Source: Candidatus Bathyarchaeia archaeon (GTDB lineage: Archaea; Thermoproteota; Bathyarchaeia; Bathyarchaeales; Bathycorpusculaceae). From it: a stretch of DNA of 64,000 nt. The stretch covers positions 480,001 through 544,000 of the forward strand of contig JAVYWL010000001.1 of NCBI GenBank assembly GCA_038727135.1, read 5' to 3'. The position numbers and the translations under genes were made by a program. Positions 25,070-60,216 of the stretch are shown piece after piece (the first letter of the stretch is position 1; each line of letters starts with the position of its first letter). A model generated the notes under the pieces. The model worked only from the letters and a program-made list of their open reading frames with translations, did not search any database and was not told where the DNA came from.

Positions 25070-25215
25070 ATACTAAACCACCATCAGCTACCCGCCTTTA
25101 CAAACCGTTTGAGATAAAACCACAAGCTTATAAATCTACTGTGAGCAAAAGCCAAAAAGGCTTTTCTACCCAAAGAAGTTTATTTGCAAAGCAAGCACTG
25201 TTTACAGCGGAGGGT

Positions 25216-26369
25216 ATGCCTTTGAGTTCAGAAGAAGTTAACCTACTATCAAAACTCGTGTCCATAGACACCACATCCACGGAACGAAAAAATTATGAAA
25301 CGTTTGCAGACTTACTTATGGAAGAGACACAAAAACGCGGTTTAACGGCTGAAAAAGTAGTTGATAAGAAGGGAATTCCACACATCATCGTAACGATCCC
25401 CACAGCCCCTAAAAAAGCGAAAAAAGTCGTTTTCATAACCCATTACGATGTCGTCCCAGCTGGCGAAGGTTGGGACTTCGACCCATTTAAACCATTTGTA
25501 AAAGACGGCAGGCTTTATGGGAGAGGGGCTGCTGACAACAAATCAAATATTGTAGCCGCAGTCACAGCTTTCCATGAAACTTTAAAAGAAAAGCTACCGT
25601 TGAAAGTCTATCCGATTTTAGCTGTGGCAGGCGGAGAAGAAACAGGCGAGTCAGAGGACTTCTTTGAAACATTAGAGGGAGACCTAGCTGTGGTACTTGA
25701 TGTGGGTTGTGAATCCATTTCTATCGGTTCCTCCGGACTGGCGCGTTTAACAGTTAAAGTATTAGGCAGACAGGCGCATTCCGCATGCCCCTATAAAGGG
25801 ATAAACGCCATATATGAAACGGTAAAAGTGATAGAGTTCGTAAAGAGAAAGGCTAAAGAGTTTGAGGAAAATATTCTTTCAAAGTTTCCAGCTTCAACAT
25901 ACTACAAGAGACTACCAAGAAGAATGAGCGTTACAATGATAAATGGTGGCGTTGCAGCCAACATAATTCCCGGTGAGTGTACACTAACTATTGACGTAAG
26001 AACAATTCCGGAAGAAAAAGCGTAAAAGCAGCTGAAGAAGTTAAAGCCATGCTAGAAAATTTTGCAAAAAGGGAAGGAATAAACATTGACGTTCAAGTTC
26101 AATCTTTTTCAGATGGGTGGTACACCACCAACAAAAAGGTCGTAAACACCATTAAAAAAATAGCTGAAAGCGTCGTTGGAGAAAAATTAAAGCTAAGCGT
26201 CGAGTTAGGCGGAACAGATGGAAGATATCTTATTGAAAGAATGCCTGTGGTTCAATTCGGCACATTAAGGGAAGATACAAACATCCATGGCAAAAACGAG
26301 TTTGTATACCTTGCAGACTTAGATGTCGTGAAAAGGTTCATTAAAAAAGTGTTAACAGTTCAGCTTTAA
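25216..26369 (+). pseudogene. M20/ArgE-DapE family metallohydrolase split by a single-base deletion near 26021
   Basis: HYDVVP, GRGAADNK and GEE in the first ORF; GGTDGR and NIHGKNE in the second. Frames join if one base is added at gaaaaagcgtaaaagca. Confidence 0.8.
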
Positions 26370-28556: not shown

Positions 28557-29153
28557 GTGTTGAAATTGGAAAACAAAGTTATAATTGGTATAGACTTGGC
28601 GGGTAAAGAGGAAAACCCTACGGGTTTAGCGGTCTGGCGAAACAAAAGCGTGGAAACATGCCTAATTTACACGGATAAGGAAATTTTGGAAAATGTTGCA
28701 CGTACAAACCCAAAAATTGTGGCAATAGATGCGCCACTGAAACCCCCGAAAAGTGGGATTTTTAGAAAAGCAGACAAGGAGCTAATCAAAAAAGGTTACC
28801 GCGTTTTTCCACCAGGCCTGCCAGCTATGAAAACGTTAACCCTTCGGGCAATTAGGCTAAATAGGTTAATAATAGAGATGGGTGTACAAACAATAGAAGT
28901 GCACCCAACCTCGACAAGAAAGGCTCTAGGCATGCCAGCAAAAGACTGGAAAACAATACAAAACATTCTAAACCGTATCGGCCTAGCTGGGTCTATAAGC
29001 CAGCGTATATTGGCGCCGCACGAGATAGACGCTGTAACAGCAGCCCTAACGGGTTACTTTTACGTGAAAGGCTTAACAGAAAGCGTGGGCGACCGTGAGG
29101 AAGGCTTCATCGTGGTTCCAATAAAGCGAGATTGGAGAGAAATAAGGCTATGA
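28557..29153 (+). CDS. DUF429 family protein (predicted RNase H-fold nuclease)
   Basis: IGIDLA, VAIDAPL, IEVHP and HEIDA motifs. Confidence 0.85.
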   Translation: MLKLENKVIIGIDLAGKEENPTGLAVWRNKSVETCLIYTDKEILENVARTNPKIVAIDAPLKPPKSGIFRKADKELIKKGYRVFPPGLPAMKTLTLRAIRLNRLIIEMGVQTIEVHPTSTRKALGMPAKDWKTIQNILNRIGLAGSISQRILAPHEIDAVTAALTGYFYVKGLTESVGDREEGFIVVPIKRDWREIRL

Positions 29154-30730
29154 GCTTTCCGGAGAAGCTTCAAAAGGCTGTCGAGCTTACTATAGCAGCG
29201 GGTTACCAGCTTAATAAAGAGGCCTTTGAGTTCTTAAATGAGGCATCTGCAACTGAAGACCCCGTAGAAATTATGAGCAAGGCACTGGCCAAAATAGAAA
29301 CATTAAAGGATAAACCCCTTTTCATTGAAAGAAGCCTTTTAGAAGAGCTTGTAAAAAAGCCTGAACGCGTTGAAACCCCTTCTTTAGCACCGCAGACAAA
29401 GGAGGAGTCTCTACACGCAATCCTTCAAGAAACACACGTGCAGTCGCAATTAGTCCTTGAGGGGAGGAGACTTTTCCGTCCATACGCCAAAGAGGTAGAA
29501 GCTGAAATTAAGATTATTGAGGACGCTGGCAGTAAACTAAGCTCAAGCGGAACATTAGAAGATTATCTTGAATATTTCCGAGATAGGTTTAACCGAATCG
29601 AAAAACTGCTAAAGCAAAGGATAGACGTAAGAGGCGCGGTTTCAATTGCCGACGCGGTAAGAGCCTCACCTAACACAAAACTCAAAGTAATTGGCATGAT
29701 AACAGAGAAAAGGGAAGCCAAACAAAAAATTCTTTTAACGTTAGAAGATCTCAGCGCAAGCGCCACTGTTCTGGTGCCACAAAACGCTCCTCCCGACCTT
29801 TTGACCAAAGCAAGGGCACTCTTGTTGGACCAAGTTATTTGTGTTAGCGTAACTAAGACACGAGGAAACTTGTTAATAGTTGAAGACATCATCCTCCCAG
29901 ATATCGCCCCTAAAAATCCGAATAGGGCTGATGTCCCTGTTTACGCCGTGCTCACTTCAGATTTGCATGTGGGCAGTGCAAAATTCCAAGATCACCTTTT
30001 TAACAGGTTTGTTTTGTGGCTAAAAGGGGAATATGGAAATGGGCAAATGCGGGAAATGGCTAGCCATGTAAAATATGTTTTGATAGCCGGCGACATCGTT
30101 GACGGTATAGGCGTGTACCCAAATCAAGTTAAGGAACTTGCAATAAGAGACATTTATGGGCAATACAGGTTGGCCTCAAAGCTCATTAAGCAAATTCCGG
30201 ATTACATTGAAATCACAATTATTCCGGGAAACCATGACGCCCCAAGAAAGGCCTTACCTCAACCGTCAATACCCGACGCCTTTTTAGAGAAGCTTCATGA
30301 TGTAAGCAACATCCACCTTGTTGGAAACCCATGCCTTCTTAGCCTCCACGGTGTTGAGGTTCTCATGTACCATGGTCGAAGCCTCGACGACATAATCTCC
30401 ACAGTCCCGGGAATAAGTTACACTCAGCCAGAAAAAGCCATGACCCTACTTTTGCAGTGTCGCCACCTGGCACCAGTTTATGGAGGAAAAACCCCCATCG
30501 CGCCTGAAAGCAAAGATCGCCTCGTCATAGAACGGGTACCCGATATTTTCCATGCCGGGCACATTCACACGGTCGGCCATACAAATTACAGAGGTGTCAC
30601 CGTCATTAACTCTGGGTGCTGGCAGGAGCAGACCGAATACATGCGAAGGCAAGGGTTAACCCCAATGCCGGGCCTAGCGCCAGTGGTAAACCTTCAAACA
30701 TTGGATGTAAAAATTATTTCATTTGTCTAA
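29150..30730 (+). CDS. polD1: DNA polymerase D small (exonuclease) subunit DP1
   Basis: OB fold plus phosphoesterase motifs SDLHVGS, GDIVDGIGVYPNQ, PGNHD, YHGRS, RHLAP and GHIH; ATGA overlap with the upstream gene. Confidence 0.96.
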   Translation: MSFPEKLQKAVELTIAAGYQLNKEAFEFLNEASATEDPVEIMSKALAKIETLKDKPLFIERSLLEELVKKPERVETPSLAPQTKEESLHAILQETHVQSQLVLEGRRLFRPYAKEVEAEIKIIEDAGSKLSSSGTLEDYLEYFRDRFNRIEKLLKQRIDVRGAVSIADAVRASPNTKLKVIGMITEKREAKQKILLTLEDLSASATVLVPQNAPPDLLTKARALLLDQVICVSVTKTRGNLLIVEDIILPDIAPKNPNRADVPVYAVLTSDLHVGSAKFQDHLFNRFVLWLKGEYGNGQMREMASHVKYVLIAGDIVDGIGVYPNQVKELAIRDIYGQYRLASKLIKQIPDYIEITIIPGNHDAPRKALPQPSIPDAFLEKLHDVSNIHLVGNPCLLSLHGVEVLMYHGRSLDDIISTVPGISYTQPEKAMTLLLQCRHLAPVYGGKTPIAPESKDRLVIERVPDIFHAGHIHTVGHTNYRGVTVINSGCWQEQTEYMRRQGLTPMPGLAPVVNLQTLDVKIISFV

Positions 30731-31260
30731 GACAAGCCACGAGCAATTAGTCTAGCAACGCGAAGCGGTTCCGGCACACGGCCACAAACAATAAAACTTG
30801 TTATAAACTGGCTGGCCCACTCCGCATTTGCCCCAACAACCTCAAAATATAATGGAGCCTCTTTATCAAACACCTTAACTTTATGAATTGGCCCCAATTT
30901 TGCAAAAACTTCCCAGTGTCTTTTCCAGTCTTCGAAATGTCGCATAAGTGCCCTTTTAACAGCCCTATTATCAGGCTTTGCCCTTGCCACAATGACTATT
31001 GGTCTATGAAAGGCGCCAGAAAGAGCCAAAGGGTCTATAACGTTGAAGCCGGCAAAGGACACCCCAGCAAGCATGACCGCCTCAAAATCCCAACACTTCA
31101 AGATTTCTGCAGCTTTTTCTGTCGCATCTAATCCATCAACAGTTATCCACTTGAAAGCTACATCCTCAATCCTTAACCCCTTAAAAAGGACAGCGACCAA
31201 AAGAGCCTTTTTATCAACGCCTTTTACAAAGCTTCCATCTTCAATTCCTACTACTCGCAT
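30727..31260 (-). CDS. DUF99 family (endonuclease V-like) protein
   Basis: VVGIEDG, ITVDGLDAT, AGFNVID and PEPLRVARLIA motifs. Confidence 0.88.
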   Translation of the reverse strand: MRVVGIEDGSFVKGVDKKALLVAVLFKGLRIEDVAFKWITVDGLDATEKAAEILKCWDFEAVMLAGVSFAGFNVIDPLALSGAFHRPIVIVARAKPDNRAVKRALMRHFEDWKRHWEVFAKLGPIHKVKVFDKEAPLYFEVVGANAEWASQFITSFIVCGRVPEPLRVARLIARGLS

Positions 31261-32491
31261 TCTTTGAAAGGCATCTGGGCTCATAATCAATCAAGCGTCC
31301 AAGCCTACTGTCATTAGAGAAGGCTTCTTTAATAAGGGTGCGCGTCACTTCCATGCGGATCTTTTTCGTCCGTCCATAGCGCCCCATGCTTACAACTTGA
31401 GCGTTCAGCAAACCCAAAGCATCAAGCTCGTTGACCAAAGTGCTAACACGCCTTTGAGTTAAAGGTGTTACAGCCAGCTCACTGCAAAGCTCATTATATA
31501 CTTCATATATCTCACCCGTAACCGCACGGTAACCATTAGCCCTAACAAGGTGATAGACGCTCAACATCACAAGCTTAGAGTGCAAGGTTAAATTTGCCAA
31601 GGCGTCAACAACCCTATTATGCTCTATAAGCCTTTCAGCCTCACGGACATGTTCCTCGGTGACGACGCCTGCACCCTTACGTTCTGCAACCTCGCCTGCC
31701 ACTCTGAGCAAATCCAAAGCCCTCCGCGCATCACCATGCTCAGCAGCAGCCAAAGCCGCACAAAGGCTCAAGGCTCCCTCGCTAAGGGCTCCCTCTCTGA
31801 AGGCTATCTGCGCCCGCTCAGCCAAAATATTCCGCAGTTCAGCCGCATTATAGGGCCTAAAGACAATTTCCTCCTCACTTAGAGAGCTTAAAACTCGGGG
31901 ATCTAAGAACTCCTTTAGACGTAAATCATTTGAAATGCCAATTATGGAGACTTTACTGCGCTTTAATGTTTCGTTAATCCTTGTAAGTTCGTATAAGAGA
32001 ATGTCGCTCCGCGCCTTTACCAGAGCGTCTACCTCGTCAAGTGCAACTATCAGTATTTTTTTAGCTACGTCTAAGCCTTGCTTAAATCGGTCAAAGACCT
32101 CGCCAAGAGACAGCCCGGTGAACGGAACCACGAGGTTAATACTCTGACATAAGCTCGCAAGAACTCTATACTCGGTTCCAGCTAAGCGGCAATTCACATA
32201 GCAAAAACTTACAGGCGCGCCGATTTCCTTAGCCTTAGCCTCCAAGCGATTTAAAACATACTTAGTCACCGCCGTCTTACCAGTCCCTGTCTTTCCATAA
32301 ACAAAAATGTTAGAACATCGTGCGCCCTTCAAAACTGGTGCAATTGCCTCCCCGAGGCGTCGGATTTGTTCTTCACGATGCGGAAGTCTTTCGGGTAAAT
32401 AATCATGCCGTAGAACCTCCCGGTCCTTAAACACGCCGACGGTATTGCAGAACCTTTCAAACACCTCGTCAAGTATACCTGCATCGTTCAT
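31241..32491 (-). CDS. cdc6: Orc1/Cdc6 replication initiator
   Basis: YLPERLPHREEQI, Walker A GKTGTGKT, LDEVD, HGDARRALDLLR and C-terminal wHTH GRYGRT. Confidence 0.97.
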   Translation of the reverse strand: MNDAGILDEVFERFCNTVGVFKDREVLRHDYLPERLPHREEQIRRLGEAIAPVLKGARCSNIFVYGKTGTGKTAVTKYVLNRLEAKAKEIGAPVSFCYVNCRLAGTEYRVLASLCQSINLVVPFTGLSLGEVFDRFKQGLDVAKKILIVALDEVDALVKARSDILLYELTRINETLKRSKVSIIGISNDLRLKEFLDPRVLSSLSEEEIVFRPYNAAELRNILAERAQIAFREGALSEGALSLCAALAAAEHGDARRALDLLRVAGEVAERKGAGVVTEEHVREAERLIEHNRVVDALANLTLHSKLVMLSVYHLVRANGYRAVTGEIYEVYNELCSELAVTPLTQRRVSTLVNELDALGLLNAQVVSMGRYGRTKKIRMEVTRTLIKEAFSNDSRLGRLIDYEPRCLSKNASSRN

Positions 32492-32639
32492 TAGTCACAC
32501 CTTCCTCCTAAATGAAACTCTTAACGCAAGCGTTCGCCCTTTTCTTCCGCCAATTTAAGATAAGGCATGCCATACAGAAAAGTGAACAAGCAACAGAAAA
32601 ATCCTAAAATGACAAAGGTTTTATTGTTGGGAAAAGGGA

Positions 32640-32664
32640 GACACCCCATCACTTCAACTGGAAA
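32640..32664 (-). promoter_or_regulatory. ORB element 1
   Basis: Minus strand reads TTTCCAGTTGAAGTGATGGGGTGTC, matching the ORB consensus TCCAGTGGAAA plus G-string. Confidence 0.88.
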
Positions 32665-32831
32665 ACTCTAAAAGCTGTTACTTAATATCCTTGTTTCCTT
32701 CGTAGAAAGGAAAATACTCTGAAAGGTTAGAACATTCAGAAAGGTAAAAAGGATTCTCCTAGAAGTTTTTATACCTAAACTAAAAATGTTTCACTTCAAT
32801 GCTGAATTAGAAATCTACTGCTCACCAACCT

Positions 32832-32852
32832 CTCCAGTGGAAAATATGGGGT
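32832..32852 (+). promoter_or_regulatory. ORB element 2
   Basis: CTCCAGTGGAAAATATGGGGT. Confidence 0.9.
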
Positions 32853-33049
32853 AGCACTTCGCCATCTTTTAAGTAGAGTTCAAAAAGGGTGCGAGTTTCG
32901 TTATGGTTTACGGGATGCATTTGCCATATTATGGTGCAGGTAAACGACTTCACTTTTGTGAAAACCTTGTGAAGTTTACTCATTTTTGGCGTTTTTATCC
33001 GAGCAATTCTCGTGACGTTGCTATTTCTGTGTCTTTTCTCTGTGAAAAA

Positions 33050-33074
33050 GACACCCCATCATTTCTACTGGAAA
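33050..33074 (-). promoter_or_regulatory. ORB element 3
   Basis: Minus strand reads TTTCCAGTAGAAATGATGGGGTGTC; 23/25 identical to ORB1. Confidence 0.88.
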
Positions 33075-33272
33075 GCTGCAAGCATAATTTAACGATTTTT
33101 CATTTGCAAAATGGGTTTTGCTGTAAACTCTGTTAATAAAAATCTTTGGAAATAAGGCTCTTCACGCTGCTTTCAGTTCAAAATTTGCTCTTTATTTTTC
33201 TCCTTTTCACCGCAATAGCTATATCTTGTGAAGTGCAAACTTGTGAAAAGAATTTGCGGGTGCCCGACAACA

Positions 33273-33707
33273 GTGCCAGCGAGAAAGATGCGAATAGAAG
33301 TGTTCGACAGTGAAGGTAATAAGTACAGCATAGCCTTTGAAGGACAAATCACGCGAGATAAAGCCCTCCGCCTATTAGATCTGGTAGAATTGCTTGGAGG
33401 AGTTACATCGAGCGGCACTAATCCTAGCGTTAGCGCTGTCAACATTGAGAAGTCAAAATACGATAAGTTGCTAGCTGTCCTCCAAAAGAACTTTCCCATA
33501 GTTTGGTTCTCATCAAAGGAAGTTCAGGCTGCCTACGAACAAGAGTTTAAAGAACCCATCAGCTTAAGCACCGTGGCCACGTATCTTTCAAGAATGGCTA
33601 ATAAAGGATTGCTCATGAAGGCCGGCGCCTCTAACCGCCTTAAATATAGAATTGCGCCTGGCCCTCCACAAGTTATAGTGAAGCATCACCTACCAAGCGA
33701 GGGTTAA
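33273..33707 (+). CDS. Origin-adjacent hypothetical protein with C-terminal winged helix
   Basis: GTG start (MPARKMRIEV); FSSKEV...ISLSTVATYLSRMANKGLL is wHTH-like. Confidence 0.78.
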   Translation: MPARKMRIEVFDSEGNKYSIAFEGQITRDKALRLLDLVELLGGVTSSGTNPSVSAVNIEKSKYDKLLAVLQKNFPIVWFSSKEVQAAYEQEFKEPISLSTVATYLSRMANKGLLMKAGASNRLKYRIAPGPPQVIVKHHLPSEG

Positions 33708-33713
33708 TGCTTC

Positions 33714-34427
33714 TTAAGTGGCCTCCGTTTCAGCTCTTTTCAAAAATTTCTCCATTTCCTTCTTCACACTGTATTTGAAGGGGATTTTACTTGAGTCCCT
33801 TTCTAAATAACCTTCCTCGTAGAGCCTCTTCATAAGCCTAGCTGTGTGCTCCCTGCTAAGCCTAATCCTCTCCTTAATTTCCGGGGCTGTTTTTGGGCCC
33901 TCAGCGGCCAACATCTCCAACACAGCAAGCTCCGTTTCAGTTAATTTGGCTAATGCCTTCTCTCTCTTTATTGGTATGGCCGCCTCAACTCCGATTTCAG
34001 GAAGCGTTGACACTGTTTGGGTTCTCTCTTCAATCGTTGAAACTTTAGCGAGAACCTCTTTTTGTGCTTCGGTAACGTCACGGGTCTGTTTCTCTATATC
34101 GTTTAGTCGAGTTAGCATCTTCTCCTTGTCCTCAAAAAGCTCCTTCGCCTTGTCTTCCAAGAGTTTTAGCCGATTCTCCATGTCTTTAACGGCCTTTAGC
34201 GCATCGGTGCCCTTGGCAGAAGCGGCTTCAATCTTATAAGAAATGGTTTGTAAGACGTCTGTCGCATGCTTAAGCTCCCTACTGAAGCTCAAGATTATAT
34301 CGTTAAATGCTTCCTTGGCCTTCTCGTACTCTTTTCTAATTTTAACAAGGTTCCTATAATACTCTACAGCAGCACCAACAGCCACTGCCAGAAAGATGCT
34401 CGAGATAATAATTAAGAGATCAACCAT
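33714..34427 (-). CDS. Membrane-anchored coiled-coil protein with C-terminal winged helix
   Basis: N-terminal TM (LLIIISSIFLAVAVGAAV), about 110 aa of charged heptad-like sequence, then LTETELAVLEML...TAPEI...SREHTARLMKRLYEEGYL. Confidence 0.82.
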   Translation of the reverse strand: MVDLLIIISSIFLAVAVGAAVEYYRNLVKIRKEYEKAKEAFNDIILSFSRELKHATDVLQTISYKIEAASAKGTDALKAVKDMENRLKLLEDKAKELFEDKEKMLTRLNDIEKQTRDVTEAQKEVLAKVSTIEERTQTVSTLPEIGVEAAIPIKREKALAKLTETELAVLEMLAAEGPKTAPEIKERIRLSREHTARLMKRLYEEGYLERDSSKIPFKYSVKKEMEKFLKRAETEAT

Positions 34428-34692
34428 GTGATGCCTCCTGTGATTCTTCTGTAATATGTCGTGACTTTAACATGTTACATCACACATCACAGTTTTAGCC
34501 TAAAAATCATTTAAAGATTGTGGTCGCCGTGAAGACTTATGACGTCACAGGTCACGAATAGATGCGTCCAACGTTATCTTATCCTTTTAAAGAAAACCTC
34601 GTTTTTGCCTTCTTCTTCCATTTGGCCCTATTTTTCACTTCCTTTATCTGCAATAGGGACTTGTAATTTTCTCTGTGATTTGTGATGTCACA
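34427..34692. repeat. Array of YGT(G/A)A(T/C) motifs including three 19-bp compound sites
   Basis: TGTGATGTGTGATGTAACA (minus, 34473-34491), CGTGACCTGTGACGTCATA (minus, 34538-34556), TGTGATTTGTGATGTCACA (plus, 34674-34692); single half-sites at 34427, 34439, 34450, 34460 and 34662. Confidence 0.75.
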
Positions 34693-35164
34693 TAAAACCT
34701 TCCGATGGGTTTGAGAGTACATTTAAGCTGTTTTCAAGCTCTTCCCTTAACATTTTAAGGATTTTTATTTGTTCCTCTGGCTGCTCGATTTTGTTTGACA
34801 GACCTTTGTGGGCGTTAATGTATTCTTGCAGTTTGTTTGCGATTTCAATATATTGGTCAAGTGCTGTGCTTTCAAAAATTCCTAAATACCCTAAAAGCAG
34901 CACTGTGTAAACCGCTTTTATGACATTTTTTTGCGCTTGCTTTAAGGTTCTATTGAAGGCCCCGCGGCTTATTTTTGCCTTTGTTAGGCGTAATTTGGCT
35001 TTTTCATCGTATTTCATCGGTTTTTCCGAAAAATTTTCGGCTAAAATGTCTATGAGCAGCGTTTCTAGCTGCGTTTTTGTCAGGTGGCTATTCTTTGTGA
35101 GTATTTTGACTATGGGATCTTCTAAAGACTTTTTTAACCATAATTGAACGCTGTTTTTCAACAT
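34688..35164 (-). CDS. Hypothetical protein with putative HTH
   Basis: LTKTQLETLL...KAKLR...ISRGAFNRTLKQA is HTH-like. Start placed at ATG 35164. Confidence 0.7.
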   Translation of the reverse strand: MLKNSVQLWLKKSLEDPIVKILTKNSHLTKTQLETLLIDILAENFSEKPMKYDEKAKLRLTKAKISRGAFNRTLKQAQKNVIKAVYTVLLLGYLGIFESTALDQYIEIANKLQEYINAHKGLSNKIEQPEEQIKILKMLREELENSLNVLSNPSEGFM

Positions 35165-35314
35165 TTCAGTTTCGCCACTATTAGCTATGCTTGTTGAATA
35201 CACTTTTGTATACAGGCTTTTAAGAGTTCTGTTCAACATTTAAAAGTACGCTTTCAAGACGCAACCATTATATGCTAAAGCATATAACACGTAGTTCGAG
35301 GAGAGCGTTTAACA

Positions 35315-36488
35315 TTGCAATTTAAGGCTTCTGAACGCCTAAAAAACATAAAGCCCTCTGGAATTCGCCGATTTTTCGCTTTGGCCCAAGAATTTCCCGG
35401 CATTATCAATTTAAGTGTTGGAGAGCCGGATTTTACACCGCCGATGCATGTTTTGGAGGGAGGATGGAAGGCAGTATTAGAGGGCAAAACCCATTATGCT
35501 CCAACTAATGGCATTCCAGAACTTCGAGAGGCTCTAGCTGAAAAGGCCCGTAAAGAGTACGGTCTTAAGTATGACCCAAACTCTGAGGTTTTGGTCACTG
35601 TTGGCGGTACAGAAGCTATTTCCCTTGCTTTAATGGCTCTGGTCAATCCAGGCGACGAAGTATTAATCCCTAATCCTGGATTTGTTTGCTAGAGCCTAGT
35701 GTTAGATTGGCAGGTGGGATTCCTGTTTCAATTCCAATTTTGGAGGAAAAGGGGTTTAAGCCTCCGTTGATGATGTGACGTCACTTATCACGGAGAAATC
35801 ACGTGTGATGATTTTGAACTCTCCAAATAACCCAACAGGGGCTGTTCTTTCATATGATGAACTTAAAGCATTAGCCAAAATAGCTGTTGAGCGTGATTTG
35901 ATTGTGATTTCGGATGAGGTTTACGAGAAAATAATCTATGATGGAGAAAAACACTGTTGCCTAGCGACGTTTCCGGGGATGAAGAAGCGCACCTTAGTTG
36001 TAAACTCTTTTTCTAAAACTTATGCTATGACGGGCTTAAGAGTTGGTTATGTTTATGGCCCTAAAGAGCTTATTGCTCACCTATGGCTTTGCCACCAATA
36101 TTTTACTGCTTGTGTTGATACCTTTGCACAGTATGCGGCGTTAGCCGCTTTGAAAGGGCCACAAGACTTTGTTAAAGAGATGGTGGCTGAGTTTGATAAG
36201 CGAAGGCGCTTCGTCTTTAAGAGGCTGAATGAGATTGGAGGATTTAGATGTAACCTCCCGAAAGGCGCCTTCTACATGTTTCCAAGCATAAAAGCCTTTA
36301 ACATGTCTTCGGAGGATTTCGCCCAACTTCTGCTTAGAGAAGCACGTGTTGCCACTGTGCCGGGTTCTGCTTTTGGTTCTTATGGTGAGGGTTACATCCG
36401 GATTTCCTACGCCGCAGCCTATGAGCAACTGGAAGAGGCTTTTAACCGTATGGAGAAGGCTGTTAAAAAGCTTAAGGGCTCTTGTTAG
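35315..36488 (+). pseudogene. Class I/II PLP aminotransferase (aspartate aminotransferase-like) with two single-base deletions (near 35691 and 35763)
   Basis: GEPDF, HYAPTNGIPELRE, NSPNNPTG, SDEVY and SKTYAMTGLRVG. The bridging peptide EPSVRLAGGIPVSIP lies in a third frame. Confidence 0.85.
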
Positions 36489-37318
36489 AGCTTTTCTGCT
36501 TTCTCCTTTAGTTTGTCGAAAAGTTCCGGGCGCAAATCTTTCAATGTTGGGACAAAGGCTTCAATAGGCTTTATGTTGGCATAATTTACTTCGCCCACCA
36601 CGAGGTCTTCCTCGTCGTATTTCGCCTTTGCAATTATTTTCCCGTTTGGGGCTATTAGTCTGCTTCCACCCCAGAACTGCAGTCCATCTTCTATGCCTAC
36701 AAGGTTTACATAAGCAAGAAACACCGCATTTTCAATAGCCCTAGCAACCGTTAGAGTCTCGAAAAACGATTTGCGAACGGCTGGCGAAGCTGAAATACAG
36801 ACAATCATTTGAGCGCCTTCTAAACGTGTTAGCCGGCAAACTTCTGGGAAAAAGATGTCATAGCATATTATTAGCCCAATTTTTCCAATGGCTGTTTCGA
36901 AGGCACTTGCCTGGTAGCCTTGTCTAAAATATCTCTTCTCCTCAAAAACGCTGTGGGTTGGTAGGTGCATCTTCCTATATTTCCCAATGTAACCTTCCGG
37001 TCCTACGAGAACTGCAGTATTGTAAATGGTTGCTTGTGCCTTTTCGCTGAGTTCCGGCATCCCAAACACTATGTAGACTTTATACTTCTTCGCGATTCTT
37101 TCGATTGCATCGGTTGATGGCCCTGGGATTCTTTCTGCCAATTCATAAAGTTCATCCCTTACCGTATATCCTGTCAGTGAGAGTTCGGGGAAAATAACGA
37201 GCTCTGCACCTTTTCGCTTTGCTTTTACAGTGAATTCTTCAATTTTCTGTATGTTTGCCTTTTTATCTCCCCGTTGGCAGCTTATTTGGGCAAGGGCTGT
37301 CAAGAATTTTTCCTTCAA
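36485..37318 (-). CDS. Carbon-nitrogen hydrolase (nitrilase fold), candidate glutaminase partner of NadE
   Basis: FPELSLTGY, YRKMHLP and ICYD carry the Glu-Lys-Cys triad. Confidence 0.9.
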   Translation of the reverse strand: MKEKFLTALAQISCQRGDKKANIQKIEEFTVKAKRKGAELVIFPELSLTGYTVRDELYELAERIPGPSTDAIERIAKKYKVYIVFGMPELSEKAQATIYNTAVLVGPEGYIGKYRKMHLPTHSVFEEKRYFRQGYQASAFETAIGKIGLIICYDIFFPEVCRLTRLEGAQMIVCISASPAVRKSFFETLTVARAIENAVFLAYVNLVGIEDGLQFWGGSRLIAPNGKIIAKAKYDEEDLVVGEVNYANIKPIEAFVPTLKDLRPELFDKLKEKAEKL

Positions 37319-39446: not shown

Positions 39447-42400
39447 TTGGACATTCTGATGAGCAAATCCTACGAAAAATACATCGAGGCTTTAGAAAAA
39501 CAACTCGGGCAATTATACAGCGTAGCCGCCAAAGCCCGAGAAAAAGGCCTCGACCCCGAATTTAAGCCTGAATGCACAATTGCAAGGGACATGGCTGACC
39601 TTGTTGAGGGGCTTGTCGGTCCCAAAGGCGTTGCTGAAAGAATACGGGAGTTAAGCTCAAAACTCTCGAGGGAGGAGCTTGCCTTTAAAATTGCTGAGGA
39701 AATTGTTTATGGAAAGTTTGGGCATTTGGAGCCTGAAGCTGCCGCTGAGCAAGCCATACGCACGGCCTTGGCTATTCTCACGGAGGGGGTTACCGCCGCC
39801 CCCATACAAGGCGTTGCACAAGTTAAGATTAAAACTAACCATGATAGGTCAAAGTATTTGGCTATCTACTTTGCTGGTCCTATACGTTCTGCTGGTGGCA
39901 CAGATCAAGCGCTCACATTAGTCATAGGTGACTTTATTCGTAGGATTCTTGGGCTTGACCGTTACAAGCCCACGGAAGAGGAAATCGCTCGCTTCGTTGA
40001 GGAGGTTAGGCTTTATGAACGCAGTGTCAGTCGCTTCCAATATCATGTTTCAGACGAAGAGTTACAGAGGGCGCTACGCTGGCTGCCAGTAGAAGTTACC
40101 GGCACAGAATCTGACCCTGTGGAGGTTTCAGCTTACCGTAATCTACCTCGCATTGAAACCAACAGGGTTCGAGGCGGAGCATTGCGTGTGGTTAATGATG
40201 GGATTGTTGGTCGGGCCTCGAAGGTTTGGGCTATTGTGGAGAAATTGGGCATCCAAGGCTGGGATTGGCTTAAGGAAATCCGGAAAATGTCTGAAAAGAA
40301 AGCGGCTGGTTTTATGGACGACATTGTTGCAGGACGCCCCATATTCTCCTTTCCGGGCAGCCGTGGAGGCTTCCGCCTACGATATGGAAGGGCAAGAAAC
40401 ACAGGATTAACAGCTGTGGGCGTTCATCCAGCCACGATGCTTGTTCTTCAAGGGTTTATTGCAGCGGGCACTCAGCTTCGCCTTGAGCTTCCAGGGAAAG
40501 GTGGAATCGCAGTGCCTGTTGATGCTTTAGAGCCGCCAATAGTGAAGTTAAGAGACGGGTCAGTTGTGCGCGTCACCTTGGAAAATTTCAGCGATGTTAA
40601 AGACAGAATTGAGAAAATCTTGTTTTTGGGTGACATCCTCATAAGTTTTGGCGATTTCCTTTACCAAGGGAAAAGCCTTGTTCCTGCCGGATATGTTGAA
40701 GAGTGGTGGGCTGGAGACTTAAAAAAAGCCATAGCCGAGAAGTTTGGAGGAGATTTTGAAAAGGCTGCGGCTGCCGCCGGGATACTTGTTGAGAGGCTTA
40801 AAAGTTTTCTTGGAAACCCGTTTGTGAATAAGCCGACATGCAAGGAGGCTATAGCACTTTCACTAAATGTTACAATTCCGCTTCATCCAGCCTATACCTT
40901 CTTCTGGTCCAGTTTAGGTTCCGTTGAGGAGCTTAAGCTTCTTAGGAACTGGGCGCTTACGGCTAGTGTGGAGTGTGATGAGGGCTTCGCTCACCGTATA
41001 GTTGGTAAGATGGATGAAAGTGTTAAGAAGGCTCTGGAAGCGATATGCTTGCCCCATAAAGTTGTTGGTGGCAATATAGTTGTTGAAGGGGATGATGCGT
41101 GTGCCTTCACCTTCTGCCTTGGCATTGGTAAGTCTGACGTTAATTTTCGACAAGTGGGAGATGTTTTGAAGGCTATTGAGGAACTTTGCGGTGTGGTTGT
41201 TAGGGATAAGGCTTCAACTTTTATTGGTGCAAGGATGGGGCGCCCTGAGAAGGCTAAGAGGCGGGAGATGAAACCTCTTGTGCATGTTTTGTTCCCCGTG
41301 GGTTTGGCTGGTGGTTCTCAAAGAGATGTTTTGGAGGCTGCCAAACGTGGAAACGTTTACGTGGAAGTTGTCAAGCGCAAGTGTCCTCCATGTAAGACAG
41401 TTGCCTTTGGGAGAAAGTGCCCCGCGTGTGGTTCTGAAACGATTTTGGAGCATGTTTGCCCAAGATGTGGAAGAACCCTCAATGGGGGCGGCGAATGTCC
41501 GGTTTGTAAAGTTTTTGCGGTTCCCTATCAGCGGCAATACGTTAACATAAGCGAGCTGCTGGACCAAGCGTGCAGCCATCTGGGTGTTTCGTCGCTGAAG
41601 ATTTTGAAGGGTGTTAAGGGCTTAACCAACGAAACTAAGACTCCAGAAATTCTAGAGAAGGGTGTTTTGCGGGCAAAGTATGACTTATCCGTATACAAGG
41701 ATGGCACTATTCGCTTTGATGCAACAAACGCTCCGTTAACACATTTCAAACCGTCGGAGATAGGGATTTCCGTTGAGAAACTTGTTAAGCTTGGTTACAC
41801 AACTGATGCTTATGGCAATCCCCTAACAAGTCCGGAGCAGATATGCGAGCTGAAAATACAAGATGTCATCATCCCAATTAAGTGTGCAGAATATTTTGTT
41901 CGTGTGGCAAACTTTGTTGACGAACTTCTCGTGAAAGTTTATGGACTGCCAGCATACTACAATGTTAGGAACATTGAAGACCTTATCGGTCACTTGGTTA
42001 TTGGTTTGGCTCCTCACACATCTGTTGGCATTCTTGGACGGATAATTGGTTTTACAAGCCTAAATGTTTGTTATGCCCATCCAGTTTGGCATTCTGCCAA
42101 ACGGAGGGACTGCGACGGCGACGAGGATGCGCTAATGCTTGCACTAGACACATTGCTAAACTTTTCAAGGGTTTTCTTGCCAGCGCAAATAGGCGGAATA
42201 ATGGATGCTCCGCTGCTGCTGATATCTGTTGTTAACCCAAAAGAGGTGCAAAGGCAAGCCCACGACTTTGATGTGGCTGAAGCCTATCCATTAGAGTTTT
42301 ACCAGAAAACTTTGGAAAAAGCTGAAGCCAAACATGTTAGCCCACTAGTAGACCTCATCGAATATCGCCTTGGCACAGAAGCACAGTTTGAAGGCTACCA

Positions 42401-42863
42401 CTTTACAGTTCCCGTTTCAAACATTAATATGGGAAATGAGGAAAGCTCCTACAAACGCTTCAAAACCATGGTGGAAAAGCTTAACGGCCAGCTGGCACTC
42501 GCGGAGAAAATTGAGGCTGTGGACGCCAAAAAAGTCGCCTTAAAAGTCTTGACAAAACATTTTATCCGCGACATTGCCGGAAACCTTCGGGCCTTTTCAA
42601 TGCAAGGGTTCCGATGCAAATCTTGCAATAAGCGTTTTCGACGTTTGCCACTACGGGGTAAATGTCCAACATGTGGTGGAGAGCTAACCTTGACAGTCTA
42701 TCGAGGTGGCATAGAAAAGTATCTTGAGGCTGCTGAGCATATAATTAAGAAGTATGATTTGCCACGCTACTATAGTCAACGGATTCTGCTTGTGAGGGAG
42801 GAGATTAACTCTTTATTTGAGGGTAAAAAGCCAAAACAAATTAGCCTAACAAGCTTCGCCTAA
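39447..42863 (+). CDS. polD2: DNA polymerase D large subunit DP2 (no intein)
   Basis: AGPIRSAGGT, GGFRLRYGR, RMGRPEKA, catalytic RRDCDGDED, Zn fingers and C-terminal PIP-like QISLTSF. Confidence 0.98.
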   Translation: MDILMSKSYEKYIEALEKQLGQLYSVAAKAREKGLDPEFKPECTIARDMADLVEGLVGPKGVAERIRELSSKLSREELAFKIAEEIVYGKFGHLEPEAAAEQAIRTALAILTEGVTAAPIQGVAQVKIKTNHDRSKYLAIYFAGPIRSAGGTDQALTLVIGDFIRRILGLDRYKPTEEEIARFVEEVRLYERSVSRFQYHVSDEELQRALRWLPVEVTGTESDPVEVSAYRNLPRIETNRVRGGALRVVNDGIVGRASKVWAIVEKLGIQGWDWLKEIRKMSEKKAAGFMDDIVAGRPIFSFPGSRGGFRLRYGRARNTGLTAVGVHPATMLVLQGFIAAGTQLRLELPGKGGIAVPVDALEPPIVKLRDGSVVRVTLENFSDVKDRIEKILFLGDILISFGDFLYQGKSLVPAGYVEEWWAGDLKKAIAEKFGGDFEKAAAAAGILVERLKSFLGNPFVNKPTCKEAIALSLNVTIPLHPAYTFFWSSLGSVEELKLLRNWALTASVECDEGFAHRIVGKMDESVKKALEAICLPHKVVGGNIVVEGDDACAFTFCLGIGKSDVNFRQVGDVLKAIEELCGVVVRDKASTFIGARMGRPEKAKRREMKPLVHVLFPVGLAGGSQRDVLEAAKRGNVYVEVVKRKCPPCKTVAFGRKCPACGSETILEHVCPRCGRTLNGGGECPVCKVFAVPYQRQYVNISELLDQACSHLGVSSLKILKGVKGLTNETKTPEILEKGVLRAKYDLSVYKDGTIRFDATNAPLTHFKPSEIGISVEKLVKLGYTTDAYGNPLTSPEQICELKIQDVIIPIKCAEYFVRVANFVDELLVKVYGLPAYYNVRNIEDLIGHLVIGLAPHTSVGILGRIIGFTSLNVCYAHPVWHSAKRRDCDGDEDALMLALDTLLNFSRVFLPAQIGGIMDAPLLLISVVNPKEVQRQAHDFDVAEAYPLEFYQKTLEKAEAKHVSPLVDLIEYRLGTEAQFEGYHFTVPVSNINMGNEESSYKRFKTMVEKLNGQLALAEKIEAVDAKKVALKVLTKHFIRDIAGNLRAFSMQGFRCKSCNKRFRRLPLRGKCPTCGGELTLTVYRGGIEKYLEAAEHIIKKYDLPRYYSQRILLVREEINSLFEGKKPKQISLTSFA

Positions 42864-50834: not shown

Positions 50835-50930
50835 TTTAACTCTGCACGGAAAAATATAAGAACTCCAACAACATTATGATACGATTACAACTGCCACCAT
50901 AGCGTTTAGATGCTGAAAAGGAGGTTAAGT

Positions 50931-51263
50931 ATGTCGGAGGAAAAGCCTAAGAAGACTGCCAAAGAGGAAAAAGCCGCCAAAACGGCACAAGCAAACGAAA
51001 ACACCGTGCTGATTGGCAAGAAACCAGTAATGAACTATGTGGTCGCCTGCTTAACCTTCTTCAACTCCGGTGCACAAAAAATTGTTGTGAAGGCTAGGGG
51101 GCGGGCGATCAGCAGAGCCGTCGACACTGTTGAGTTGTTGAGAAGGGCTTTCATGAAAGACCTACAACTGAAAGAAATCAAAATAGGCACTGAGGAGGTC
51201 ACCCGCGGCGAGGGACAGAAAACCAACGTTTCAACCATAGAAATAACCGTTGCAAAACCATAA
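50931..51263 (+). CDS. albA: Chromatin protein Alba
   Basis: [22 protein letters not shown] and VSTIEI motifs. Confidence 0.96.
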
Positions 51264-57321: not shown

Positions 57322-59427
57322 TTAAGGGTCGTTAGCCATAAACTGCTCTATTCTGGTGAGTATTTTCTCTATTTGGAAATGAGCCTTCATCTCTTTTTGC
57401 CATTCTTCTGGCAGTTTGCGTTTAAATCTTCCAGCGGCACGCTTGTCCATGATGACTATTATGCCTCTATCTTCTGGGCTGCGTAAGAGTCTCCCGGCTG
57501 ACTGGGCTAGCGCATTTAGGCATGGCATGTTGTTGGCGTATTCTATGGCTTTAGCCCCGAACTTCTCTTTAAAGTACTTGTAGAGGGCTGCTTGAAGCTC
57601 TGTCTTTTTTGGAAACGGCAACCCAACAATAATGACTGCTGAAAGTAGGCTTTTCCCCTCCATTGTCATGTCAACACCCTCGCTTATTTTTCCCCTTGCC
57701 ACGCCGAAGACAACGCAGCTTCCATTTTCCTCTAAAAACTTGAGGACGTCCAGAATCTTTGTTCGCTTTTCTTCTACTAGCAGTGGCTGTTCCAGCTTGA
57801 CTATTTGGGCGATGTCTCTCATTACCTCGTATGATGGGAAGTACACGGCGACTCTTCCGCCAACTTTTTGGATTATTTGGCTGAGGTGGGCTGCTATGCG
57901 CTTCCATTGTATTTCGTTGCGTTTCTCAAACTTTGTCGTAACAGCCTCATCCACAAGTATAAGCCTATTCTCTGGTGGGAAGGGGTTTGGAAGCTCTAGG
58001 CTTTGGCAGCGGCTTCTGTCAAGACCTAAAACATCCATGTAATAGTCCATGTTCCACAAAGTGCCGGACATAAGTATGGTGGAGCGAAGCTCGTTGATTA
58101 TGCCAGCCGCCAATGAGGGGTCAAGGCATTTGATTCCAAGCCTCACACGTTTTTTCTGGTCTCTGTCCACTTCAACTTTAACATATCGCACATAGCTTGA
58201 ACCTGTTAAGCTTACCCAATTGGAGAGAAATTCTACGCAACGTGAGAGATATGATATTGGACTTTTTCCCATCTCGCTTCTTTTGACGCGGATTTGTTCA
58301 CCCTTGTCAGCCAGTTCTTGCAGTAGTGCATCCAGTTTTTCGTGGTTGATTTTGAGTTTCTCGCCTAAGGCATAGGTTAGCGCTTCTCCATCGATTATGT
58401 GTTCAATGTCCAATCCATAGTTTCTGTAAACCTTTTTTCCAAAATTCACCATGATTGTGTATAAGGCTTCTAAAAAGCCCGAGTCGTCGATCTCGAAGTT
58501 TTTAATCTCTTTATGTGCTCTTCTGACAGACCTTGATGAGAGTTCTTCTGAAAATATGCCGCTTGCATAGTATGGGAGGCTGTGAGCCTCATCAAAGACG
58601 CAGTTAATTGCCTTCGTGCGTATTCCGGCTTTTCCCAATATTGAGCCGCGTATAGCGTCCACCAGAATGTAGTTGTAATTGCCTATGACGATGTCTGCGT
58701 AGCGTGTCAGAATCTTTGTAACTTCGTAGGGGCATAATCCCTCGTCGCGGCATATTTCATAGGTTTCCTCTGGCAGTAGGGGTCCAATCTTCTTTATTTT
58801 GCCTACTAGATTGTAGGCTTGCCAGCTTGGCTTCCACCCGTCATATGTTCTTTCATAGTATTCACATGTTTTGCCGAACAAGCCTTCCTTCATGCCCTTG
58901 CAGTAGTAGAGGAAGTCCCGGTAGGCTATGTCCTTAAGCTTGGGGTCTTCGAAGGCATGGGGGCACATTTCCTTCTTGCTCTTAAAGATGGATGCGGCAA
59001 AACTTACGCCACTGTGGTCTTTTATGTTCTTTAGCTCTCTTGAGTAGATTTCAAGCTGATTTTTCGTTCTAGTTAAGGCAATGAGCCTTCCAATAGAAGG
59101 ATTTTGTTCTTTCGCCACGAAAAAGGCTGTTAAAACCGAGATGGATTTTCCAGTGCCGCATGGGGAGCATAGCAAACCAATTCTTCCTTCTTTGAAGGTT
59201 TGGTAGGCGAATTTTATGGCTTTAATCTGGAAGGGGCGGAAACTCTGGTAAGGAAAGAACTTCCTAACTAGATCATCAAAATGTTCTTCATCTTCCTCTT
59301 TTATTGCAGTTTGATGCACCGCTGTTCTTGTCAAAAAGGTTCCACAGCTTCCACAGAAATGGCTCTTCAAATATTCCTCGGCGGTGTAGGTCCTCCCGCA
59401 TCGGCGGCAGATGTAAACTGTTTCCAT
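57322..59427 (-). CDS. xpd: XPD/Rad3-type Fe-S DNA helicase with N-terminal zinc ribbon
   Basis: R..Q motif, PCGTGKS, Fe-S cysteines (MCP, CK, CEYY, CPYE), DEAH, SGTL, SEGVD and QSAGRLLR. Confidence 0.88.
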   Translation of the reverse strand: METVYICRRCGRTYTAEEYLKSHFCGSCGTFLTRTAVHQTAIKEEDEEHFDDLVRKFFPYQSFRPFQIKAIKFAYQTFKEGRIGLLCSPCGTGKSISVLTAFFVAKEQNPSIGRLIALTRTKNQLEIYSRELKNIKDHSGVSFAASIFKSKKEMCPHAFEDPKLKDIAYRDFLYYCKGMKEGLFGKTCEYYERTYDGWKPSWQAYNLVGKIKKIGPLLPEETYEICRDEGLCPYEVTKILTRYADIVIGNYNYILVDAIRGSILGKAGIRTKAINCVFDEAHSLPYYASGIFSEELSSRSVRRAHKEIKNFEIDDSGFLEALYTIMVNFGKKVYRNYGLDIEHIIDGEALTYALGEKLKINHEKLDALLQELADKGEQIRVKRSEMGKSPISYLSRCVEFLSNWVSLTGSSYVRYVKVEVDRDQKKRVRLGIKCLDPSLAAGIINELRSTILMSGTLWNMDYYMDVLGLDRSRCQSLELPNPFPPENRLILVDEAVTTKFEKRNEIQWKRIAAHLSQIIQKVGGRVAVYFPSYEVMRDIAQIVKLEQPLLVEEKRTKILDVLKFLEENGSCVVFGVARGKISEGVDMTMEGKSLLSAVIIVGLPFPKKTELQAALYKYFKEKFGAKAIEYANNMPCLNALAQSAGRLLRSPEDRGIIVIMDKRAAGRFKRKLPEEWQKEMKAHFQIEKILTRIEQFMANDP

Positions 59428-59535
59428 TTTTGGGTTTTCACTAACTTTACTAGTGGCTTTCGTAGTAAAAGAGGTTTGCCTAGTTAGGACTTGTGAAAAT
59501 GTTAGGTTTAAGTTCTCTGTAAAGCCATTTATTGA

Positions 59536-60216
59536 TTGAGGCGCATTGGCGTGTCAAGCGAGTTTAAGCCAACGGTTTTCGCCGATATCCGCGAAAGCAT
59601 GGACGTGAAAGACCATTTGAAAGAGCTTGGATGCGAAGTTGTGGAGAAGGCTTTGGCTCCAGCGGACTATGTAGTGGCTGAGGACTACGCCGTAGAAAGG
59701 AAAGAGCTTCACGACTTTTTCCGCTCGGTCTTTGACGGCAGACTTTTTGAGCAGGCTGAGAGGCTTGCAAAAACTTACGAGAACGCGTGCCTTATTGTTG
59801 AAGGAGACGTTGTCAACGCCGTAAAGTATATTCGCACTCCACGAGCCTTCTGGGGAGCACTTTCAAAGGTTATGGCTGACCATAATATCTCGGTGGTGTT
59901 CACCCCCAACGAGGCGCACACAGCCATGTTCTTGTATACATTAGCCAAGAAACTGCAAGAAGAGGAAAGACGAAAAATAGCTGTCAAGCACAAGCCGAAA
60001 ACCTACACGCTGAGACAGAGGCAACTCCTTGCAGTGCAAAGCCTGCCAAAAATAGGTCCGGAAAGGGCAGAAGAACTTTTAAGGCGTTTTGGAAGTGTGC
60101 GCCGCGTTTTCCAAGCCTCAAAGAGGGAGCTGCTGTCCGTTAAGGGACTTGGCGAAAAGACTGTCCAAGCTATAATTGAAGTTTTGGACACAAAATATCC
60201 CGGACTGGAGCAGTAA
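59536..60216 (+). CDS. xpf: XPF/ERCC4 structure-specific endonuclease (short form)
   Basis: DIRE, ADY, VERK...D..S..DGRLFEQ and tandem HhH. An alternative GTG start lies at 59551. Confidence 0.92.
   Translation: MRRIGVSSEFKPTVFADIRESMDVKDHLKELGCEVVEKALAPADYVVAEDYAVERKELHDFFRSVFDGRLFEQAERLAKTYENACLIVEGDVVNAVKYIRTPRAFWGALSKVMADHNISVVFTPNEAHTAMFLYTLAKKLQEEERRKIAVKHKPKTYTLRQRQLLAVQSLPKIGPERAEELLRRFGSVRRVFQASKRELLSVKGLGEKTVQAIIEVLDTKYPGLEQ

Follow-up and report, generated by a model that had tools for sequence, protein, structure and literature searches.

Predicted DNA-binding proteins and clustered DNA motifs beside a predicted replication origin in Bathyarchaeia

We analyzed a 64,000-nucleotide window (contig JAVYWL010000001.1, positions 480,001 to 544,000; assembly GCA_038727135.1) of an uncultured hot-spring Bathyarchaeia genome of 1.55 Mb (1,548,789 bp; 7 contigs, 94.7% complete; hereafter G000), in which three genes, denoted gI, gII and gIII, lie next to a predicted replication origin. 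The origin with its origin recognition boxes (ORBs), the soluble winged helix-turn-helix (wHTH) protein gI, the protein gII with a transmembrane (TM) helix, a coiled coil and a wHTH domain, the helix-turn-helix (HTH)-like protein gIII, and an array of a repeated DNA motif between gII and gIII were all found where an initial annotation, made from the sequence alone, had placed them. Coordinates given without a locus name are those of the window.

Genes and motifs at the locus

The Cdc6/Orc1 initiator gene, of the Cdc6-1 type (31241-32491, minus strand; Pfam Cdc6_C 1.3e-28, Cdc6_lid 2.9e-26), borders an AT-rich spacer of ~780 bp (32492-33272) that contains three ORBs, two in direct orientation (32639-32667 and 33049-33077, plus strand) and one inverted (32830-32852, minus strand). 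A 22-letter ORB pattern, allowing up to three mismatches, matched at 32643-32664 (+), 32831-32852 (-) and 33053-33074 (+), that is, three times in the 64-kb window compared with 0.00 matches expected from 100 shuffles, and the ORB blocks are conserved among 15 aligned relatives. The spacer beside cdc6 is predicted to be a textbook archaeal oriC.

The protein with the most distinctive architecture is gII (33714-34427, minus strand; 237 aa), which consists of an N-terminal TM anchor, a coiled coil of ~115 aa and a C-terminal wHTH domain of the MarR/TrmB type; the build of anchor, spacer and DNA-binding head described initially was thus confirmed. Residues 1-22 are hydrophobic (KD19 2.45), with 2-3 residues before them and a K/R-rich run after them, so that, by the positive-inside rule, the bulk of the protein is expected to be cytoplasmic, and the sequence predicts a single-pass membrane protein with the N-terminus outside and the C-terminus inside. 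Heptads extend over approximately residues 21-147, with 5-7 of 8 a/d positions hydrophobic and almost no Pro or Gly, and the gII profile matches coiled-coil chains in the PDB (MCP, 8.3e-8; tropomyosin, 1.9e-5). These matches are compositional only, and the possibility that gII is a CdvA-like or SMC-like protein was rejected for this reason. The wHTH domain (residues 162-221) exceeds the Pfam cut-offs for both MarR (33.3 bits; cut-off 24.6) and TrmB (27.8 bits; cut-off 25.6), the MarR match spanning profile positions 1-52 of 59, whereas the score against the NCBIfam Lrs14 model (NF040939) is 26.2 bits, well under the cut-off of 90.

The resemblance of gII to archaeal regulators of the MarR/TrmB/Lrs14 type encompasses its C-terminal 60 residues and the palindromic half-site pairs in the adjacent array, but only the HTH core is matched. 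Whole MarR proteins are soluble, ~140-150 aa long and equipped with flanking dimerization helices, which are absent from gII, and the remainder of gII consists of the TM helix and the long coiled coil, both foreign to these families. In a phylum-wide alignment of 15 homologs (28% mean column identity), all of which contain the TM helix, the invariant residues are confined to the wHTH domain (R192, E193, H194, R197, K200, G206, R210 and Y219), and the first five of these belong to the recognition helix. Across the order, a juxtamembrane motif, EYEKAKE...DIILSFNRQL, is conserved as well. The predicted RNA fold of the region upstream of gII is unremarkable (z -1.61; 12/200 shuffles fold as well).

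The ~260-bp spacer between gII and gIII (34428-34691) contains 10 GTGAY/RTCAC sites arranged in clusters A (34428-34490), B (34544-34555) and C (34675-34691), and seven more sites form cluster D (35775-35908) inside the coding sequence of the following aminotransferase gene. Altogether, 17 sites in four clusters make up the array, which spans 1.5 kb, is separated from the ORBs by 1.35-2.8 kb and overlaps with the promoter region of gII. Given a genome mean of 1.71 sites per kb, the 10 sites in 34428-34691 are far above chance. Because the entire window shows no enrichment of GTGAY (132 sites observed vs 147.65 expected), the clustering alone is unusual: clusters with at least 6 sites per 150 bp occur only twice in 1,548,789 bp, namely in the A-C spacer and in cluster D, so that the array is unique in the genome. 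It also accounts for 4 of the 7 tandem pairs with 7-bp spacing and for 2 of the 3 triple-site matches found genome-wide. Clusters A and C constitute a 21-nt inverted repeat, 180 nt apart, ten-base palindromes (for example, GTGAC-GTCAC) are present in clusters B and D, and the site positions are conserved in 30 order-level relatives.

The class I/II-like aminotransferase gene that carries cluster D (35315-36488, plus strand) allowed a comparison with synonymous-codon shuffles of the same gene. Cluster D contains 4-8 sites in the orthologs compared with shuffle means of 0.5-3.2 (20/20 orthologs, P <= 0.0185 each), whereas the remaining ~190 codons contain only 0-2 GTGAY sites, and the cluster is conserved in relatives. 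This excess over the synonymous shuffles indicates that a DNA element is maintained within the coding sequence. The window copy of the gene has two 1-nt gaps and is spread over three frames, with bases missing at 35691 and 35760, whereas most relatives are in frame. Logan contigs from public hot-spring runs have an extra T behind 35691 in 4/4 cases and an extra C behind 35760 in 3/4, each of which restores the frame; the breaks therefore appear to be assembly errors or strain variants rather than marks of a conserved pseudogene. In the family f24, dense arrays lie in other neighboring genes (L061 9991-12315; L278 ~7675): a HypF gene contains 10 sites per 150 bp and an NAD synthase gene contains 8. 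Arrays inside coding sequences are thus a recurring feature.

To compare the distribution of arrays with that of gII, we used class-level loci centered on gIII and counted a locus as carrying an array when 150 bp next to gII or gIII contained at least 5 GTGAY sites. Arrays were present in 14/14 loci with gII and in 1/7 loci without it, the other 6/7 reaching a maximum of 2-3 sites; for these seven loci, gII was not found in the respective genomes either. The densest GTGAY segment of each 16-kb locus is the gIII-gII spacer in 3/3 Nitrosopumilaceae loci and falls inside the gII or gIII open reading frames (ORFs) in 2/3 loci of the family f44. The same-strand triple-site pattern is not discriminating in Nitrosopumilaceae, where the locus accounts for 1/4 matches in G262, 0/3 in G345 and 0/14 in G330. 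Based on the co-occurrence with gII, the invariant wHTH residues, and the recurrence in Nitrosopumilaceae and f44, we assign the array, with moderate confidence, to gII as its predicted binder.

On the origin side of gII, gI (33288-33707, plus strand) encodes a soluble protein of 139 aa in which a small, conserved N-terminal domain of ~40 aa is followed by a variable linker and a BlaI-like wHTH domain. Its ORF extends over 33228-33707 (+) and has a conserved ATG start at 33288, the start in the initial annotation being an alternative GTG at 33273. The window protein scores 19.4-19.8 bits against Penicillinase_R, under the cut-off of 22.6 and over profile positions 19-63 of 115 only; a weak Penicillinase_R-like wHTH was found in 23/25 orthologs (best E 3.9e-5), and its recognition helix shows almost no variation throughout the phylum. 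The Penicillinase_R label is also used for a gI-like protein in one NCBI record and, as a weak lead, appears in 11-18% of the members of unnamed ESM Atlas clusters of stored homologs. Thus, gI shares wHTH similarity with BlaI/MecI/CopY (Penicillinase_R) but differs from these proteins in having a private N-terminal domain and in lacking the BlaI C-terminal dimerization domain. A recent common origin of gI and gII as paralogs was rejected, with an hhalign probability of only 59.7%.

TGTGAA repeats on the plus strand (starting at 32957, 32968, 33041, 33227 and 33242; span 32957-33247) occupy the right half of oriC, where they are interleaved with ORB3, one of them abutting it, and overlap the gI promoter region. 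The repeats sit within conserved blocks of the oriC alignment, and their offsets from the gI start (-330, -319, -245, -165, -60 and -45) are conserved across the order. Both paired forms of TGTGAA are unique in the genome, and 4 of the 20 TTGTGAA matches in the window lie within the repeat region. In Nitrosopumilaceae, a one-letter variant, TGTTAA, is present in 8-10 copies, compared with 0.2-0.6 expected, in the Cdc6-gI spacer of 3/3 loci. These spacers (L086 9726-10202; L084, L085) also contain two ORB-like repeats, and TGTTAA often occurs in them as the palindrome TGTTAACA.

A comparable case among known origin factors is UBP of Sulfolobales with its motif ucm (PMC12141716), which, in the accessible part of that source, is a small non-initiator DNA-binding protein with a motif between ORBs, as is proposed for gI. 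The two proteins are not homologous: according to the same text, UBP is beta-rich, saddle-shaped and 111 aa long, whereas gI is a wHTH protein, and UBP binds hundreds of genomic sites, whereas the paired sites next to gI are unique to oriC. Origin adjacency of the UBP gene is not described in that part of the source, in contrast to gI, which adjoins oriC.

The third gene, gIII (34688-35164, minus strand), encodes a helical protein of 158 aa with an HTH similar to DUF134 and sigma-70 region 4. We place its start at the internal ATG at 35164 because the additional 25 codons at the start of the 183-aa ORF coincide with a conserved DNA box and are interrupted by stops in 5 relatives. No Pfam family was detected for gIII, 0/24 orthologs reaching the DUF134 cut-off of 27 bits (best single E 0.056). 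The HTH-like assignment comes from hhalign, in which gIII matched an alignment of 19 Bathyarchaeia DUF134 proteins with 83.7% probability (E 8.1e-6) over 47 columns covering the HTH only, with the shared pattern SRG...R...A+..V. Distant gIII relatives belong to no Pfam family except for two weak DUF134 matches, and their cluster names are uninformative; as a weak lead, Sigma70_r4 is present in 14% of one Hadarchaeota cluster among the ESM Atlas clusters of stored homologs (score 0.78). Two insertions within the HTH region and an additional C-terminal helical half of ~70 aa set gIII apart from DUF134/UPF0251, and bona fide DUF134 genes exist separately from gIII in 32/61 class genomes. The gIII promoter is marked by a 16-nt box, GTATACAAAAGTGTAT (35198-35213, minus strand), located ~34 nt upstream of the start; it hardly varies among the 20 upstream regions that were aligned and has one exact copy in the genome, along with one 2-mismatch match elsewhere.

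For gI and gIII, a sequence search of the PDB gave nothing below E 0.049, and PHROGs and NCBIfam gave no matches. Searches with Pfam, NCBIfam and hhalign assigned the three proteins to no characterized regulator family beyond a generic HTH or wHTH fold, a result that supports the initial interpretation. Almost all public records that we saw call them 'hypothetical protein', the name also given to nearly all of the more than 5,500 gI-like and more than 3,900 gIII-like protein clusters in databases, and literature searches, which covered publications outside their supplementary files, retrieved no description of any of the three.

Conservation, linkage and separability

We found gII in 32/41 relatives, and the order Cdc6-oriC-gI-gII-gIII in 28/31 order-level loci, the other three of which end at contig ends. 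The block recurs in 15/20 class-level loci and, outside the class, in the families f37 (Nitrosopumilaceae), f41, f47, f48 and f54; in one complete f37 genome, it lies beside the sole Cdc6 gene. A mobile or defense island was rejected as an explanation because the block is part of a class-wide syntenic core. In 11/30 loci, a HerA-type ATPase (DUF87, 3.4e-11) and a partner of ~340 aa without a Pfam family are encoded in the gI-gII interval, on the same strand as gI (for example, L034 5412-7995); a tblastn search did not find this pair in G000.

The initial annotation regarded the three genes as one module, a view that their distributions contradict. In one even sample of 151 class genomes, with Cdc6-1 orthologs defined by a best E <= 1e-100, gI was found in 89 genomes, gII in 108, gIII in 126 and Cdc6-1 in 99; in the phylum sample, gIII was present in 91/201 genomes. 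The presence of gI is nested within that of Cdc6-1: both were found in 88 genomes and neither in 51, Cdc6-1 alone in 11, and gI alone in a single genome with a weak match (9.5e-4). The corresponding numbers for gII are 75 genomes with both genes, 33 with gII only, 24 with Cdc6-1 only and 19 with neither. The three genes thus show three different phyletic patterns and are separable.

In f24, gII was found in 30/33 genomes and Cdc6-1 in 1/33. The claim that the genes are linked to the origin stands for the order-level loci, the class and Nitrosopumilaceae but is in part refuted for gII by a complete f24 genome, in which 343 kb separate the sole Cdc6 gene from gIII, gII and their two arrays (9 and 8 sites). 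In four genomes, gII-gIII abut the gene for the PolD small subunit without Cdc6, gI was not found, and the sole Cdc6 gene is the other paralog, located elsewhere. Together with the occurrence of gII in the absence of Cdc6-1, the f24 genome suggests that gII, together with its array, is self-contained and able to exist at a distance from any recognizable origin. In the complete f44 genome G204, with three Cdc6 genes, gI is divergently adjacent to PCNA and has no Cdc6 next to it (L250 7759-9077), and the gIII-gII pair lies 490 kb from gI and ~14.5 kb from one Cdc6 gene. The nesting of gI within Cdc6-1 and its adjacency to PCNA suggest that gI is tied to one initiator and its origin and, more loosely, to replication genes.

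G000 itself contains two Cdc6 genes, the second of which, on contig C3 (149799-150905), is 36% identical to the window copy and implies a possible second origin. It belongs to the type that is the sole Cdc6 left in lineages that lost Cdc6-1 and gI.

Readings of the locus

We propose, giving this reading about an even chance, that the locus encodes three separate DNA-binding proteins with site specificity and private motifs, an ancient set that flanks the origin and in which gII pins its own locus, and that it is not a three-part machine. Dimers of gII would bind pairs of GTGAY/RTCAC sites, which lie around the gII promoter and on both sides of gIII and continue into the aminotransferase ORF; provided that gII stays anchored, as we infer, its occupancy would pin the locus to the membrane. 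RicO of Staphylococcus aureus, discussed below, is a precedent for a protein of this build with origin-proximal sites. Binding would probably repress gII, through sites over its likely promoter and leader, and perhaps gIII, and might involve looping between the inverted clusters A and C. The protein gI could be an accessory or regulatory factor of Cdc6-1 and its origin that probably binds TGTGAA on the ORB3 side and at its own promoter, and gIII may act as a DUF134-like HTH protein on the box at its own promoter. Binding of these repeats by gI is supported by the TGTTAA copies in Nitrosopumilaceae and by the conservation of its recognition helix. The proximity to the origin looks like a functional property in the case of gI and like an inherited position in the replication island, from the PolD small to the PolD large subunit, in the case of gII and gIII.

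Several observations weigh against this proposal. The TM helix of gII is kept in 22/29 homolog frames and missing from 7/29, and the spacer varies in length and is almost nil in f44, so that the anchor and the coiled coil are not universal. Two loci of the family f49 encode a gII with a TM helix and a wHTH domain but contain no array, with a maximum of 4 and 2 sites, respectively, in any segment counted. Conversely, in L069 9205-11669 (G090), GTGAY sites flank gIII at 5-6 per 150 bp, although gII was not found in this genome, which is 86% complete and partly masked; because of these clusters, gIII is still a possible binder of the array. The assignment of TGTGAA to gI is inferred by adjacency only, and the P values for TGTGAA and TGTTAA are optimistic because both motifs were picked after inspection of the sequence. 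Furthermore, linkage alone proves little, given that the whole 16-kb neighborhood is syntenic, and, because related genomes are not independent, there were fewer independent events than the co-occurrence counts suggest. In L069, the place of gII is occupied by an ORF with XRE-HTH and CBS-like domains.

The chief alternative, which we regard as less probable but a serious contender, is that gI, gII and gIII are three ordinary autoregulated transcription factors, with the anchor of gII coupling it to an envelope signal and the position near oriC reflecting inherited gene order. Each gene has its own motif over or next to its promoter region, and the overlap of the array with the gII promoter region is what autoregulation, offered in the initial annotation as the simpler explanation, predicts. 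The synteny of the entire block from PolD to PolD, metabolic genes included, the persistence of gII, gIII and arrays far from the sole Cdc6 gene in the complete f24 genome, and the dispensability of gII in 24 genomes with Cdc6-1 are all compatible with such regulators. However, 17 sites in four clusters exceed the need of a simple operator, and one of these clusters is held inside an ORF against synonymous drift in every ortholog compared; the TGTGAA sites reach 330 bp into the origin, one of them abutting ORB3; gI without Cdc6-1 was not found in the 151 genomes, one weak match aside; and no regulon is visible, since clustered or paired copies of the three motifs are missing elsewhere in the genome.

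A more ambitious, joint reading combines gI as an origin-specific factor that would act on TGTKAA with Cdc6-1, and gII with its array as a centromere-like membrane attachment that would position the origin-proximal part of the chromosome without a dedicated ParA, an arrangement that would be common to Bathyarchaeia and ammonia-oxidizing Nitrososphaeria. We consider this combination unlikely.

Somewhat further down the scale of probability, and decidedly unlikely in our estimate, is the original idea that gII and the array, partnered by gI and gIII, form a dedicated ParA-independent system that keeps the origin at the membrane and serves segregation or cell-cycle coupling; support for a system dedicated to origin segregation is, in short, weak. 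The architecture of gII, the unique, centromere-like array within 3 kb of the ORBs, and the conserved arrangement beside the sole Cdc6 gene in Nitrosopumilaceae are the features that favor it. Bacterial precedents include RacA and Noc of Bacillus subtilis, DNA-membrane tethers of the same kind as RicO of Staphylococcus aureus, and gII, too, combines a DNA-binding domain and a membrane element in one protein, a feature that it shares with this functional class without implying homology. The nearest functional analog is RicO, which, according to the accessible part of its description (bioRxiv 10.64898/2026.03.06.710092), unites a DNA-binding domain with a coiled coil and a membrane-binding amphipathic helix in one polypeptide, as gII does with the corresponding elements, and has nine origin-proximal sites. 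As described there, RicO bridges DNA and membrane, whereas bridging by gII is a prediction; the domain order is reversed, with a C-terminal amphipathic helix in RicO and an N-terminal TM helix in gII; and the nine RicO sites are spread over ~700 kb, whereas the 17 gII sites lie within 1.5 kb around its own gene. Moreover, we saw no sequence relationship between the two proteins, and gII is archaeal and not always origin-linked in relatives: a concentration of sites near the origin is seen in G000 and Nitrosopumilaceae, and in the complete f24 genome the arrays are remote from Cdc6.

Resemblance to the SegAB and ParABS systems is similarly partial. The locus shares with them a predicted site-specific DNA-binding protein and clustered sites by its own gene and near the origin but differs in that no ParB/SegB-like domain was detected and no adjacent gene encodes a ParA/SegA Walker ATPase. 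Profile scans of the window ORFs (57 ORFs + 7 ORFs) found no ParA-type family, so that the reported absence of ParA holds for the window. The genome as a whole, by contrast, contains five AAA_31 (ParA/MinD-type) matches, all outside the window, and an SMC gene outside the locus; independence from ParA was thus not borne out. These genes, the f24 genome in which gII and the array are not origin-linked, the 24 genomes that have Cdc6-1 and oriC and lack gII, the loss of the TM helix and the variable spacer, and the three phyletic patterns of the three genes all count against a dedicated tether. In the accessible part of a review of the archaeal cell cycle, SegAB and ParA/ParB homologs alone are named as candidates (PMC7617429).

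Least probable of all, and improbable in our view, is that gII is a membrane-sequestered transcription factor freed by regulated proteolysis, following an anti-sigma or SREBP type of logic, with the array as the target of the soluble form: the one TM helix at the N-terminus, which leaves just 2-3 residues outside the cytoplasm, and the conserved juxtamembrane motif would fit, but no protease gene is linked to the locus, gII has no sensor domain, no target is visible beyond its own locus, and the sequence bears no mark of a cleavage site.

Surrounding genes and significance

The locus is embedded between the genes for the PolD small subunit (29132-30730, plus strand) and the PolD large subunit (39447-42863, plus strand). 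Endonuclease dU (30727-31290, minus strand) is encoded between the small subunit and Cdc6, and genes for a CN-hydrolase, NAD synthase, Elf1 and GGGP synthase lie between the aminotransferase and the large subunit. A Cdc6-DP1 'replication island' is a known pattern, as described in the part of PMC2643942 that was accessible. An Rfam search of 32000-36500 gave 0 matches with E up to 1, the tRNA search found no genes, and the single tandem repeat detected has a 7-nt unit, ACATCAC, in 2.1 copies. A sigma-70 promoter scan showed no excess, the scan model being not applicable to archaea.

Elsewhere in the window, an M20 peptidase is split over the adjacent ORFs 25141-26025 (N-terminal part and dimer domain) and 26049-26369 (C-terminal part), probably by a frameshift or stop, like the breaks in the aminotransferase. 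Divergent neighbors at 57322-60216 encode an XPD-type helicase (DEAD_2, HBB) and an XPF/ERCC4 nuclease with an HhH domain, and an Alba gene is located at 50910-51263; XPD, XPF and Alba are ordinary repair and chromatin genes.

To conclude, for the study of chromosome organization, positioning and segregation in Bathyarchaeia and Thaumarchaeota, the locus described here offers a defined protein together with a defined, unique cis-element, both directly testable. Even if the conservative reading proves true, the locus would still comprise three class-wide, unannotated families of DNA-binding proteins. It also includes gI, a small wHTH protein that depends for its occurrence on one particular initiator paralog, and predicted protein-binding arrays that are kept in coding sequence against synonymous drift. 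Because the block lies beside the single Cdc6 gene of Nitrosopumilaceae, cultured ammonia oxidizers, and not only uncultured metagenome-assembled genomes, can serve for such tests.

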